Part shown: positions 1 through 3,756 of the stretch, in pieces
Numbering within the stretch: position 1 is the stretch's first letter
How the letters are laid out: each line of letters opens with the position of its first letter
DNA from: Terriglobia bacterium
GTDB lineage: Bacteria > Acidobacteriota > Terriglobia > 20CM-2-55-15
DNA: 64,000 nucleotides
Assembly: GCA_965218585.1 (NCBI GenBank)
Contig: CBDCLE010000003.1
Coordinates: forward strand, 128,001 to 192,000
Direction: 5' to 3'
Notes under the pieces: generated by a model
Database searches by the model: none
Told to the model about the DNA's origin: nothing
Seen by the model: only the letters and a program-made list of their open reading frames with translations
Made by a program: the position numbers and the translations under genes

Positions 1-15
1 CGCGGATATGAGACC

Positions 16-684
16 TTGACCCTGGATACGCAGCGGACGATGGTTCGGATCAAGGCAATGTATCGAGGACGTGGGATCCGGACGCCGGGCCACGGCGTCT
101 ACCTCCCATCGCAGCGGGAACACTGGATCGAACAGCTCGCCAATACCGGTGCACGGCGGCGTACCGGATGGTTGTATGAGGAGCTGGATCATCTGAGAGG
201 GTTAAGAAAAAAAGCGAAGCTGGCGATGTTAACCGAGAGCTGCAAGCATCGTGCGGTGGGGATATTGCAGACGATTCCCCAGTTGGGACCGATACGTTGC
301 GCCTTGATTGTAGCGACGGGGGACACCCCGCATCGATTTCGAACCAAACGCCAGCTCTGGAACTACAGCGGTCTGGCCGTGGCAATGCACATGAGTGCGG
401 AGTATGAGCAGGAAGGGAGTCGTGTGGTACGTCGTCGAAAGCCGATCGCCACGCGGGGACTGAACCGCAACGGCAACCGACGTTTGAAAGATGTGTTCAT
501 CGGGGCGGCGACCGGAGGCATGGGGGCCGAACCTTGGAAAAGCTACCTGGAGGGGCTCCAGAAAGACGGCAAGCGTAAGGAGATGGCTCGGCTGACACTG
601 GCGAGGAAGATTGCAGCGACCGCACTGAAGATGTGGAAGAAAGGAGACACGTTTAACGCAAAGAAACTGAACTTGGCGACATAG
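16..684 (+). CDS. IS110-family recombinase/transposase, C-terminal part (5' end outside window)
   Basis: Motifs LQTIPQLGPI, RF...QLWNYSGL, catalytic-Ser region HMSA, GNRRLK, LARKIA. Confidence 0.9.
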   Translation: MTLDTQRTMVRIKAMYRGRGIRTPGHGVYLPSQREHWIEQLANTGARRRTGWLYEELDHLRGLRKKAKLAMLTESCKHRAVGILQTIPQLGPIRCALIVATGDTPHRFRTKRQLWNYSGLAVAMHMSAEYEQEGSRVVRRRKPIATRGLNRNGNRRLKDVFIGAATGGMGAEPWKSYLEGLQKDGKRKEMARLTLARKIAATALKMWKKGDTFNAKKLNLAT

Positions 685-689
685 CCGTT

Positions 690-900
690 TCCAGACTTCT
701 GCCGACAGCGCGAGGCATTCGACCGCTCGTCGTCGGTGAGGCGTCGGAACGGTAGGGTCGAGGGTGAGGATCCGATACGCGGTTGGCACACAGCGCTTGC
801 TGAAGGCCCATGTAATACTCTATCCCCCCTCGCACGACCTGGAAAAGCGATAGCCCTCGAGGCTCAGATAGAACCGTGGTCGGCAATCACGACCCCTTTG
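690..900 (+). ncRNA. Putative bridge/seek RNA in the IS1111 right end
   Basis: Stems 700-706/879-885 and 756-770/823-839; internal segment 774-784 is the exact reverse complement of flank 1070-1080. Confidence 0.7.
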
Positions 901-1069
901 CGCTTTTCAGTTTCTCGAAACCACACCACGTTGTGATGAGTGATCGACTTCTCTGCGATGCCGGATCAACAGTTCGTCTCAACGGAGACAGGGGCTGGCT
1001 GCCACGACAGTGTTGGGTCCGGTGGTCCGCTCGGCGGGGACGTGTTTCTCTTGACAGCCCCTTCCATAG

Positions 1070-2877
1070 AACCGCGTATCTCCCTGTGCGTATTCGGCTT
1101 CGATGAGGCCATCCCTCCTCGCGCCGGTAGGGGCGAGGAAGACAAAGTCATCGATGTCGTAGTAGAAGAGATTGATCTCTCCCTGAAGGCGGTTCCTCCG
1201 GTGCCGCAGCGCGAAGTCAAAGCCGTGGCTTCGCTCCCTGCCCAGCGTCGGGTTTCCAATCTCGAAAGTCAGGTTCCCAACATGAGGACCGAAATTGTAA
1301 AGTTCTTCCATTGCCGGGGCCCGGAACGAGTCGGTGTAGTTGGCGACAAACGCCCCGCCGTCCCATAGGTCGAACCGCGCGCCTATACCGGCAGAGAAGC
1401 CCGTAAAGTCGATGTCCCGTGCCGCGGTGTTGCCGACCGGCTCGAAGTTGTTGTGTTCCAGGCGTCCCCCCAACTGCAGGCGGACCCGATCAAAACTCAG
1501 TTCTTCAAGCCCGAACACGGCGAACGCTTCTTGATCGACCGGAGGGGACAGAGCCTCTTCGCCCCTTGTTTCGAAGTCACGGGTCAGTCCCCAGAAACCG
1601 AAGCTGCCCGAGAGGTGATCGCCGCTTCCCTGAGTGAACACACCTCTGTAGACGAACTGTTGATTCTCAAACGTTGTGCCGATCTCCTGCACGCCGTCAT
1701 CGAAGATCTCCAGTTCGTCGTGATTCCAGTCCGAATAATTGAGCGAGAGTTCGAAAGAGTCGACGATCGACCCAAGGTTTCTCAGCCCCGTAGTCAGCCG
1801 GATTCCGTGCTGCCGGAACGCAACTTTCACAGCGTCCACAGCTTTCCCGGTTTCTCCTCCGCCTTCGAAAGTGTGCGCGAACGGAATGCCGTAGCGGCCG
1901 TCGTTACCCTGGTACCCAACGCTGGCAAATGCCTTTTCTCCGAACCAGCCGAGACCGACCGATCCATTGCTGATTCGGCTCATCGAGTTGTGGATCACGC
2001 CGATCGGGGTTTCGTAATCGTCCGTACGCTGCCCTCCGCCTCCCAACCACAGAAGCCATCCGCCAGCCCCGTACTCGGTCGTGAAACTGCCACCCGCCTG
2101 CTCGTTCGCCGAGCCCGCCGATGACGAGATCTGCCCGCGCAGGCCTTCGTAGGGTTGTTCCAGGAAGCTCTCGTGGGTGCTGATCGCATTGACGACGCCA
2201 CCGATGGTGTTGCTTCCGTACAGGAGCGTAGCCGGTCCCTTGACGACTTCAATGCGTTCGACGCTCCCCCCATCGATGGGTTCTCCGTGGTCGCCTGACT
2301 GCGACGCCAGCGACCCGATGCGCATTCCGTCCTGCATCACCAGTACGCGATCGCCATCGAACCCTCGAACCACCGGCCGGGAGTTGCCCGCTCCGAAGCT
2401 GCGCTTTCGGACGCCCAGTTCTCCATCGAGCATTTCTCCAAGAGATGTCGCCATCACCTCGGACAGATCGAACGAGTCCAAAGTTGTCACCGACGGGATT
2501 GCCTGGAACGTTGTTTCCTGGCGGCCCTGTGCCGTGACCGTGATTTCCTGACGCAGAGGAGAGATTCGCAGCCGGATGTCGAGTGTCGCCCTCGCGCCTC
2601 CGACCACTTCGACAAACTGCGTTTCCGAGTCGAGGGCCGACTGGAAGGCGAGGACCTCGTACACGCCCGCCGGTACGTCTTCAAATCGGTATTGACCGGT
2701 TTCGTCCGTTTCAGTCGTTACGCCCAGTTCCACCAGTAGCACAGTGGCCCGGTGGACAACTTCATCGGCCGAAAGCCTGACCCTTCCTTCAATGGATCCG
2801 GATTCTTGTGCCCAGCCCGGCCCGGGCACAGTTACCAACACGAAAAGGGCCACTAATGGAAAGTAAAAACGCTTCAC
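1070..2877 (-). pseudogene. TonB-dependent receptor (ZnuD-like), C-terminus removed by IS1111 insertion
   Basis: Signal peptide, carboxypeptidase-like N-domain, plug (SRPVVRG, ERIEVVKGPATLLYG, SGDH), beta-barrel strands; frame runs into IS sequence after GDTR. Likely GTG start at 2877 with GGAGG SD. Confidence 0.9.
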
Positions 2878-3447: not shown

Positions 3448-3756
3448 TTAGTACCGGCCGTATCCGCCACGGCCGCCGCCACCGCCGCGGCCACCGCCAC
3501 CGCCTCTGTCTACCTGAGGCCGAGCCTCGTTGACAGTCAGGGGGCGTCCTTCAAGATCTTTTCCGTTAAATTCGTTGATCGCCTTTTCGGCCTCTTCGTC
3601 ACCCATTTCAATGAAGCCGAAGCCTCGTGACCGTCCTGTGTCGCGGTCGGTGATGATTCGGACTGATTCTACGGCTCCAACTTGACCGAACATGTCGGAG
3701 AGGTCGTCTTCCGTCGTCTGGAAGGGCAGGTTTCCAACGTACAGTTTCTTTGTCAT
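3448..3756 (-). CDS. RRM RNA-binding protein with Gly-rich tail
   Basis: RNP2 LYVGNL, RNP1 RGFGFIEM, VNEARP, GGGRGG tail. Confidence 0.97.
   Translation of the reverse strand: MTKKLYVGNLPFQTTEDDLSDMFGQVGAVESVRIITDRDTGRSRGFGFIEMGDEEAEKAINEFNGKDLEGRPLTVNEARPQVDRGGGGGRGGGGGRGGYGRY

Follow-up and report, generated by a model that had tools for sequence, protein, structure and literature searches.

RNA-guided recombination of the kind considered here was already described in 2024, for IS621 (Durrant et al. 2024, PMC11208160; Hiraizumi et al. 2024, PMC11208158) and for the IS1111-group elements ISEc11, ISPa11, ISKpn4 and ISPst6 (Siddiquee et al. 2024, PMC11187229). In IS621, top-strand pairing is made by the right-target guide and bottom-strand pairing by the left-target guide (PMC11208158), and the right-donor guide pairs discontiguously (PMC11208160). 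In the seekRNAs of the IS1111 elements, the top-strand match lies 5' of the bottom-strand match (PMC11187229). Published seekRNAs have a short form of 82–96 nt and a long form of 148–172 nt (PMC13604230). Published work treats donor recognition in less detail for IS1111 elements than for IS621, and among the papers listed by our search none was devoted, by title or abstract, to an IS1111 donor loop. Our search for bridge RNA work on "Acidobacteri" returned only an unrelated review; the supplementary tables of the 2024 papers may list the clade studied here. The element reported below is an additional member of this group, and the known picture of RNA-guided recombination is unchanged by it.

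The analysed stretch of DNA (64,000 nt, the window) begins inside an IS110/IS1111-family element of 1557 bp, which spans window positions –486 to 1070. Sixteen near-identical copies (99.7–100% identity) were found in the genome, each with a different left flank. All 16 were identical through position 1070 and divergent beyond it, which defined the element end, and a search with a covariance model built on 52 sequences recovered exactly these 16 copies. The non-coding ends measure 109 nt on the left and 386 nt on the right, the long one lying 3' of the transposase gene as in the IS1111 group. The transposase is a DEDD/serine recombinase of 353 amino acids with both a DEDD (RuvC-like) N-terminal domain and a C-terminal Tnp domain carrying the conserved serine. 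It matched Pfam PF01548 (E 3.7e-17, 63 bits, cut-off 29) and PF02371 (E 4e-9, 37.2 bits, cut-off 21.3), and scored 127.2 bits against NCBIfam NF033542 (IS110 family RNA-guided transposase), under the curated cut-off of 140. Residues D10, E56/57, D93, D96 and S258 (G-L-x6-S-A) belong to motifs that 14 of the 17 related translations share, the other three rows (L078, L126 and L127) having been left out for wrong reading frames. The serine is followed by alanine (S-A), compared with the SG, TG or TA listed in PMC11187229. Among solved bridge recombinases, only distant sequence matches were obtained. The best-scoring relative was ISCro4 (PDB 9t56), whose match was weak (E 1.3e-9, two stretches, proteins only being compared) and in which the DEDD and G-L-x6-S motifs align; IS621 was distantly alike (E 3.3e-7). 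No named IS matching the element was found.

From this evidence and the guide analysis below, it is considered highly probable (roughly 0.88) that window 685–1070 forms the right, non-coding end of an IS110-family element that is active and of IS1111 type, and that this end encodes a bridge (seek) RNA. The initial annotation of this DNA had identified the segment as the right end of such an element, which is supported by the Pfam domains, the 386-nt right end and the 16 copies. Features are collected in Table 1.

Table 1. Coordinates of the transposase gene, the predicted RNA, the element terminus and the insertion site in the window
Feature	Position	Strand	Basis
Transposase gene, 3' two-thirds (227 codons)	1–684	+	ORF; start 377 bases upstream of position 1
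Predicted hairpin 5' of the guide modules, putative part of the RNA	690–748	+	Minimum-energy fold of 690–900
Target-binding hairpin (predicted)	758–834	+	RNAalifold, pair counts on 52 sequences, single-sequence fold
Right-target guide: 775–781 versus top strand CGCGTAT, 782–783 versus core AC	775–783	+	k-mer scan, covariation
Left-target guide: 809–816 CATGTAAT, equal to left flank consensus; 817–818, core AC	809–818	+	k-mer scan, covariation
Donor-binding hairpin (predicted)	835–882	+	Pair counts, covariation
Probable right-donor guide AAAAGC, versus first left-end bases after the core	843–848	+	One covarying column
Left-donor guide ATAGA (the element's last five bases) plus core AC	868–874	+	Junction match, relatives
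TTGACA, outward-facing candidate –35, 14 nt from the right terminus	1051–1056	+	Position kept in relatives
Right subterminal inverted repeat CCTTCC (1060–1065) plus 5-nt terminal extension ATAGA	1060–1070	+	16-copy identity
Right half of the insertion site: core AC (1071–1072), right target CGCGTAT (1073–1079)	1071–1079	+	16-copy logo
TonB-dependent receptor gene, 5' 608 codons, interrupted by the element	1071–2895	–	Pfam

The true left end starts ACGCTATAAGGAAGG and carries GGAAGG, the partner of CCTTCC at the right end. The two ends share only CTAT..GGAAGG with a 2-nt gap, to be compared with the 7–17 bp subterminal inverted repeats that serve as IS1111 criterion; in sister families there is a clean 10-bp repeat, CTATGAAAGG. 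Comparison of the copy on contig C25 with the empty site in three same-genus genomes showed that target-site duplication is absent, since the empty sites were colinear with the left and right flanks after removal of 1557 bp. In its putative subterminal inverted repeats with short terminal extensions, absent duplication and outward –35 at the right end, the element resembles ISEc11, ISPa11, ISKpn4 and ISPst6 as described in PMC11187229. It differs from them in clade and target, and its relatives are mostly labelled Acidobacteriota MAGs.

For the RNA, 93 related elements were parsed from the genomes of relatives and a DNA pattern scan, and 52 sequences were placed in a structural alignment, whose 5' region aligned poorly. 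In most relatives the position of the left end was given by sequence pattern and not by several copies or empty sites. The covariation favours a target hairpin followed by a donor hairpin in tandem, each with a large internal loop. In this predicted layout 94.5% of 1196 cells were paired, and ten pairs showed changes on both sides, counts that overstate independence because the elements are related to each other; the paired fraction and the covariation score were each reached in 0 of 500 shuffles. G-U pairs were frequent, for example in 38 of 52 sequences at pair 126/198. On the other strand they would be A-C mismatches, as expected if the RNA is of + sense. Across relatives, covariation with the DNA partner was seen for three of the four guides.

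In the target hairpin, both closing helices (759–764/827–832 and 768–771/822–825) were paired in 100% of the cells of the 52 sequences, with pair 126/198 (alignment numbering) occurring as UG, CG and GC, and the hairpin was recovered in the fold of the single sequence as well. The internal loop consists of strands 772–784 and 809–821, beyond which lies the distal hairpin 785–808. The stem 756–770/823–839 proposed in the initial annotation is close to these covarying pairs, and its location of 774–784 in an internal loop, opposite a partner at about 807–815, was borne out, the 3' strand of the loop holding 807–818. As had been noted, 774–784 (GATACGCGGTT) is the exact reverse complement of 1070–1080, and the 64-kb window has no further occurrence of the 11-mer (0.01 expected; two matches in 0 of 100 shuffles). 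When 3098 element k-mers in both senses were compared with the 16 right flanks, 775–783 ranked first (116 of 144 matches, z 5.0); among 3100 k-mers compared with the 16 left flanks, the first rank fell to 809–816 (68 of 128 matches, z 4.1). Guides can be read against the insertion site as proposed, with 775–783 retained from 774–784. Pairing of G774 with C1080 is due to chance, as flank position +10 is C in four of 16 copies, and T784 pairs with the last base of the element, A1070. A role of T784 as handshake extension is considered doubtful, for the equivalent base does not track the terminus in relatives.

The same guides were followed through the relatives. Over 45 distinct guide pairs the Watson–Crick run of the right guide from the core had a mean of 5.62 nt (at least 6 in 27 of 45 and at least 8 in 19 of 45). 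It was scored in free register, fixed-register scoring being unsuitable because the loop is one base shorter in some families. With permuted flanks the mean was 1.27 and the maximum 2.13, and the observed value was reached in 0 of 2000 permutations. For 33 distinct guide pairs, the identity of the left guide with its own left flank was 0.85–0.97 at LT-4 to LT-1 and 1.00 at the core, a level again reached in 0 of 2000 permutations. The left guide would pair with the bottom strand of the target. The top-strand guides lie 5' of the bottom-strand guides in both hairpins (775–783 before 809–818, and candidate 843–848 before 868–874).

In the donor hairpin, the basal stem 835–839/878–882 was 89.2% paired in the 52 sequences with changes on both sides at four of five pairs; it reads CGACC/GGTCG here and CGGCC/GGCCG in the close relative G029b. 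The loop strands are 840–851 and 865–877, and the distal hairpin (852–855/861–864) was 99% paired with changes on both sides at three of four pairs. The initial annotation had read 868–876 (ATAGAACCG) as a donor guide on the basis of its identity with 1066–1074. The match is exact, and the 9-mer occurs nowhere else in the 64-kb window (0.40 expected; at least two matches in 3 of 100 shuffles); taken alone, it is borderline. Covariation upheld 868–874, leaving 875–876 as a conserved stem-side motif with a chance match to the flank. The left-donor guide was the sole non-self match of at least 7 nt to the computed end-to-end junction. Its 5-mer equalled the terminal 5-mer in 72 of 72 relatives (ATAGA in 34, ATAGG in 38), and the two letters after it tracked the core through the variants AC, TC, AT, AG and GC. 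Of the 49 elements with both junctions read, 46 had one and the same core at the two junctions, in the left guide and in the donor guide. The dinucleotide shared here is AC, changing with the guides to TC, AT, AG and GC in relatives, and the earlier TT/AA core was given up, as was the statement that all four segments end in TT or AA, since ATAGAACCG ends in CG.

The right-donor guide is the weakest of the guide assignments; it is probably 843–848, with discontiguous pairing to the left end. Its GC opposes an invariant GC or AC of the left end, and in 89% of 27 elements the base in alignment column 219 (A845) was the complement of left-end position 4, three letter types occurring on each side. 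In the element studied here, GC and two of the next three positions pair, and the A-A mismatch at left-end position 4 is attributed to its left end being 2 nt shorter. Two other candidates were rejected. ATAGC at 850–854 is complementary to left-end bases 3–7 in this element, but relatives do not keep the complementarity, and the segment extends into the conserved distal hairpin. The base adjoining the donor-loop GC, considered as core-pairing, showed no covariation with the core among relatives.

It might be argued that the target hairpin (758–834, 77 nt) is the sole guide, that the second hairpin is a protein scaffold or part of a precursor, and that ATAGA with AC is an echo of the conserved end that pairs with no donor DNA. 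The 82-nt short seekRNA of ISEc11 alone supported transposition (42%, PMC11187229), the right-donor guide is weak here, and the covariation of the donor guide involves few states (A/G at one position and the core dinucleotide) because the end sequences vary little. Against this, the donor-guide 5-mer and core track the terminus and core of their own element in all 72 of 72 cases, five core variants included. The internal loop that holds segment 868–874 also has the same build as the target loop, its 3' side again carrying the guide identical to the top strand. The two hairpins together measure 125 nt, between the short and long published forms and in agreement with neither. We regard the single-guide explanation as improbable and prefer target and donor hairpins in tandem.

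Still less probable is the arrangement of the initial annotation, with the target loop placed within a split donor loop and the whole forming one compound structure closed by stem 700–706/879–885, with donor guides 711–719 and 868–876 and a TT/AA core. The seven pairs of this stem are perfect in the present sequence, and a multi-loop holds candidate donor-binding bases in many IS1111 elements according to Durrant et al. (PMC11208160). In relatives, by contrast, the stem was not kept: 49.7% of its cells were paired in the 52-sequence alignment, in which the 5' region is poorly aligned, and the best complement of the arm anywhere in the 5' region scored 6.19 of 7, against 5.91 of 7 when shuffled. 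Stem 835–839/878–882 showed compensatory changes at four of five pairs, among them changes in a close relative whose outer stem is disrupted. Segment 711–719 is gapped in most relatives, and the left end, ACGCTATAAGG..., has no complementarity to it, so that the left junction already contradicts this segment as donor guide; the junction does share TAAT with 807–815. The core is AC, and the covariation favours the two tandem hairpins.

In elements of the IS200/IS605 type, guide segments act in the single-stranded DNA of the element end. That the segments act here in single-stranded DNA or as protein-read sites, RNA being uninvolved, is scarcely credible: the folding energy is no better than that of shuffles, but RNA guidance has been shown experimentally in both DEDD/serine subgroups (PMC11187229, PMC11208160), and the guides lie 190–300 nt from the end in a structure with many G-U pairs of one strand sense.

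Compared with IS621 (PMC11208160, PMC11208158), the predicted RNA has the same succession of target loop and donor loop, right guides directed to the top strand and left guides to the bottom strand, a 2-nt core common to target, donor and guides, and a probable right-donor guide that likewise pairs discontiguously. Unlike in IS621, where the RNA lies in the left end, it lies in the right end, 3' of the gene, and each loop has its right guide 5' and its left guide 3', the opposite of the IS621 order. The inverted repeats exceed those of IS621 in length, AC takes the place of CT as core, and no conserved handshake extension was seen among relatives. In this RNA, predicted from sequence, a donor-binding loop can be read with covariation support, whereas PMC11187229 gives target matches only. 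The donor guide would occupy a simple internal loop that follows the target loop in tandem, and a 386-nt "non-coding end" becomes a readable guide RNA. The roughly 45 natural guide pairs on one conserved scaffold constitute a ready reprogramming series for an IS1111-type RNA, in which sequence by itself gives the core and all three well-supported guides.

From published relatives we infer the following course, which covers RNA production, recombinase binding, circle formation, the junction promoter and the order in which strands are exchanged. The element would excise as a circle, whose abutted ends would create a TTGACA-N18-TATAAG promoter. The right end would be transcribed in the sense of the transposase gene to give the bridge (seek) RNA, which would be bound by the recombinase. 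In the target loop, 775–783 would pair with the top strand over the core and right target, and 809–818 with the bottom strand. In the donor loop, 868–874 would read the last five bases and the core, and a short discontiguous match to the left end would be made by about 843–848. The complex would align the circle junction with C-A-n-G-T-A-A-T / AC / CGCGTAT sites, and strands would be exchanged at AC with no duplication.

The core of the left junction equalled that of the guides in 16 of 16 sites and in every relative correctly read, whereas the core of the right junction differed from the guides in six of 16 sites (AA in five, GC in one) and in four single relatives. Strand exchange in IS621 is reportedly staggered around the core. 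From a staggered exchange, a mismatched core would be expected about equally at either junction, unlike the one-sided pattern found here. The two core copies may be non-equivalent, with exchange of both strands taking place on the core's left-target side or with directional repair, an explanation we think unlikely. If it were true, the element would always bring its own core and tolerate a mismatched target core, and with the very short right-donor guide the clade would be a mechanistic variant of bridge recombination and not a copy of IS621.

TTGACA, to which the initial annotation had assigned a promoter role on circularisation, kept its distance from the end in 12 of the 15 related loci that were scanned; the other three gave no match to the pattern. 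TATAAG is found 4 nt into the left end, and the resulting TTGACA-N18-TATAAG, in which the final G of the –10 is unfavourable, may be a promoter completed by circularisation, as ISEc11 suggests by analogy (PMC11187229). Within the linear element, a search of the + strand gave no sigma-70-like site. Assembled metatranscriptome contigs (four runs, three studies) covered parts of 531–1077 at 90–99% identity; they give neither strand nor ends, such libraries can contain DNA, and the uncovered parts are uninformative. Two contigs of one study end at 844, an observation that was not counted as evidence. The folding energy of 685–1070 gave z +1.85, 98 of 100 shuffles folding at least as well, and that of 690–900 gave z +0.06 versus shuffles. 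A long-range structure from the fold of 685–1070 was rejected as not common to relatives. An Rfam scan with E up to 10 gave no match in 685–1080, and a single-protein scan of genome contigs for relatives gave 18 pattern matches, of which none was confirmed.

The 16 flanks yield C-A-n-G-T-A-A-T, AC, CGCGTAT as site consensus and landing rule for the element; the target deduced earlier, CCCATGT-AA-CCGCGTATC, is two bases short relative to it. In the right flank, positions +1 to +9 were A15, C11, C15, G13, C14, G14, T13, A10 and T11 (of 16), and position +10 was random across the copies. Recognition of the left target is loose, LT-6 being equal to the guide in only two of 16 sites. The genome contains 43 exact ACCGCGTAT sites, 41 of them unoccupied. 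At these 41, on average 0.93 of eight positions agreed with the left guide, versus 4.25 at the 16 occupied sites, which implies that both half-sites count.

At the copy in the window, the left flank agreed with the left-target guide at four of eight positions (TAAT only). This copy exchanged flanks with an inverted copy about 55 kb away, through inversion between the two, so that its present left flank is not the original one. The predicted left junction CCCATGT-AA-TGCCTCG was not present at this copy, owing to the wrong register and to the flank swap. The remaining 3' part of the receptor gene, expected beyond the left junction of this copy, was located instead about 55 kb upstream on the contig, where it adjoins the left end of the inverted copy. 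In relatives G001, G002 and G003 the site is intact and the two receptor halves are contiguous. The interrupted receptor contains CarboxypepD_reg, Plug and a truncated beta-barrel domain (profile positions 43–312 of 436); the five weak matches in the Rfam scan all lie within this gene, at 1097–2367. The 16 identical copies disrupt genes, here that of the TonB-dependent receptor, and at least one pair of copies inverted about 55 kb.

The transposase gene was found to span the start of the window, with 353 codons on the contig. The protein scored above the cut-offs of both PF01548 and PF02371 and below that of the NCBIfam model 'IS110 family RNA-guided transposase' (127 bits, cut-off of 140), and its homologues numbered in the thousands. 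By aligning the 16 copies of the element in the genome (99.7–100% identity) together with their flanks, the left terminus (ACGCTATAAGGAAGG) was placed 486 bases upstream of the window and the right terminus (...CCCCTTCCATAGA) at window 1070, giving a length of 1557 bp with non-coding ends of 109 nt (left) and 386 nt (right). A long non-coding region at the right end is the IS1111-type arrangement according to two reports (PMC11187229, PMC11208160). None of the defining features tested for an IS1111-type element and its bridge/seek RNA failed; the element is of the IS1111 type and belongs to an already known kind. Transposase residues 128–290 also matched NCBIfam's model of the TIGR-Tas RNA-guided endonuclease, though weakly, at 32 bits against a cut-off of 100. 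A distant link between IS110-type transposases and TIGR-Tas has already been published, and the match would fit that link and no more.

The initial annotation had read guides in the right end from two sequence matches, and both were reproduced: 774–784 is the exact reverse complement of 1070–1080, and 868–876 is identical to 1066–1074. The 11-mer had no further occurrence in the window (0.01 expected; two copies in 0 of 100 shuffles), and the 9-mer alone was borderline (0.40 expected; two or more copies in 3 of 100 shuffles). As a guide, 868–874 was retained, comprising the terminal 5-mer and then the core; the agreement of 875–876 was coincidental, these bases lying within a conserved Y-R-T-G-G motif and agreeing with the flank in the window element alone when compared with relatives.

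To locate the target guides, all k-mers from the full length of the element were compared in either sense with the flanks of the 16 copies. The right-flank consensus was A15 C11 C15 G13 C14 G14 T13 A10 T11 (counts of 16), with noise beyond, and the left-flank consensus from –8 to –1 was C9, A6, none, G11, T9, A13, A8, T10. The reverse complement of 775–783 ranked first of 3098 against the right flanks (116/144, z of 5.0), and 809–816 in the same sense ranked first of 3100 against the left flanks (68/128, z of 4.1); the two stretches lie opposite one another in a single internal loop. The left guide runs on into AC (817–818), the dinucleotide with which both the element and the right flank begin, and this is the hallmark of a common core. 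Three same-genus genomes have an empty site where contig C25 carries a copy; this site was colinear with the joined left and right flanks minus 1557 bp, and thus there was no target duplication. The genome contained 43 exact ACCGCGTAT sites, 41 of them free; the free sites agreed with the left guide at a mean of 0.93/8 positions versus 4.25/8 for occupied sites, indicating that both half-sites matter. The left-junction core was AC in all 16 copies and never differed from the guides, whereas the right-junction core differed in 6 of 16 (AA in five, GC in one) and also in four single relatives. These one-sided departures go beyond the textbook picture and hint at the place of strand exchange, a reading with modest odds. 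One copy, on contig C1, was without one C of the right target. In a sister family in the related genome G001 (L038, L024, L058–L062), the right flank TCATCTTGTCGGACGTTGAGA was kept over more than 25 nt with few changes in 7/7 copies, which suggests that the target of this family is a longer, repeated sequence.

A search of 61 related genomes turned up related elements in 16 of them, the own genome included. Multi-copy families were excised from four relatives with their ends defined, and a DNA pattern made from the conserved hairpin stems retrieved 114 further stretches from species-representative genomes, 80 loci among them being available for analysis (as labelled, mostly Acidobacteriota/Terriglobia MAGs, plus one Chloroflexota and a few Myxococcota). 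The parsed set came to 93 elements, of which 73 showed a recognisable right end and 49 a left end. The scaffold was kept across relatives, and three guide stretches varied with each element's own flanks, as in the right-target guide/flank pairs ATAAGCGGT/ACCGCTTAT, GTATAGGCG/CGCCTATAC and ATAAAAACGT/ACGTTTTTAT. The covariation counts overstate independence because the elements are mutually related. The mean contiguous Watson–Crick run from the core was 5.62 nt for 45 distinct right-target guide pairs versus 1.27 nt with permuted flanks, and was matched in 0 of 2000 permutations. The left-target guide equalled the element's own left flank in 85–97% of 33 pairs at the four core-proximal positions and in 100% at the core, the left end being positioned by pattern in most relatives. 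The donor guide 868–872 was identical to the element's terminal five bases in 72/72 cases (ATAGA in 34, ATAGG in 38), and the next two letters followed the core through AC, TC, AT, AG and GC. A right-donor guide was tentatively placed at 843–848, where GC lies opposite the invariant bases with which the left end opens; among 27 elements, a neighbouring column could pair with position 4 of the left end in 89%, with three states per side, and was mismatched in the window element. PMC11208160 describes the IS621 right-donor guide as likewise discontiguous.

RNAalifold on 52 non-redundant sequences retained both helices that close the target hairpin, and in the second module it retained the distal hairpin. 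Under a tandem model, 94.5% of the cells were paired and both sides had changed at 10 pairs, which was reached by 0 of 500 shuffles.

Hairpins predicted under the tandem model (window coordinates)
Feature	Paired segments
Target hairpin	759–764/827–832, 768–771/822–825, 785–787/806–808
Donor hairpin	835–839/878–882, 852–855/861–864

The target loop had been thought to be nested in a split donor loop closed by an outer stem, 700–706/879–885. This stem competes with the donor basal stem, was 49.7% paired across relatives, and its best upstream partner was no better than shuffled sequence; in a close relative it is broken, while the basal stem is doubly compensated. Covariation therefore argues for tandem loops, target then donor, as in IS621. 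The guide order within each loop is reversed relative to IS621, and such reversal is reported for IS1111 seekRNAs (PMC11187229; PMC11208158). A covariance model of both hairpins matched exactly the 16 copies in the own genome. Single-sequence folding energies were no better than those of shuffled sequence, and an Rfam search of the RNA region gave no family match, meaning that no curated model exists and nothing more. Frequent G-U pairs are consistent with an RNA that has the same sense as the transposase gene. Judged from its sequence, the element RNA with its second guide loop is predicted to be a bridge/seek RNA of the known kind.

The remainder of the TonB-dependent receptor gene cut at window 1071 had been expected beside the left end of the window copy. 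Instead, the flanks of this copy map to two separate loci in relatives, and the receptor 3' part adjoins the left end of an inverted second copy (C3:70,657–72,213), which is on the same contig ∼55 kb upstream. The receptor halves were contiguous in three relatives (G001, G002, G003) and the remaining two flanks in a fourth (G004), so the two copies swapped flanks through an inversion, and the expected junction fails at the window copy for this reason. The arrangement points to a ∼55-kb inversion between the copies, with homologous recombination or the action of the recombinase itself as possible causes. The original receptor site reads ...CCGGAAT, then AC, then CGCGTATC.

Contigs from four metatranscriptome runs covered parts of 531–1077, carrying neither strand nor ends. 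No sigma-70-like promoter was found on the + strand within the linear element, which would fit expression by read-through or from a promoter formed at the junction, an argument already made for ISEc11 (PMC11187229). The stretch 990–997 (AGGGGCTG) is the reverse complement of 1055–1062 (CAGCCCCT), a stretch overlapping the TTGACA box; relatives conserved the motif on the upstream side, GGGGCTGG, but the pairing was not retained in G002. Contigs of two RNA libraries (X16, X17) carried A>G and T>A at 810–811, weakly read positions of the left-target guide, and a third library (X18) showed T>C at 819; these differences derive from close element variants in other samples.

A second repeat of ∼960 bp (L008:1–960), probably another mobile element, adjoined the element copy on C25; it had at least 24 copies at 100% in the own genome and dozens at 72–90% in the four genomes of the same genus. 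An ordinary-looking 102-aa ORF with a glycine/arginine-rich tail (3448–3756, – strand) looks, by eye, like a small RRM-type RNA-binding protein.
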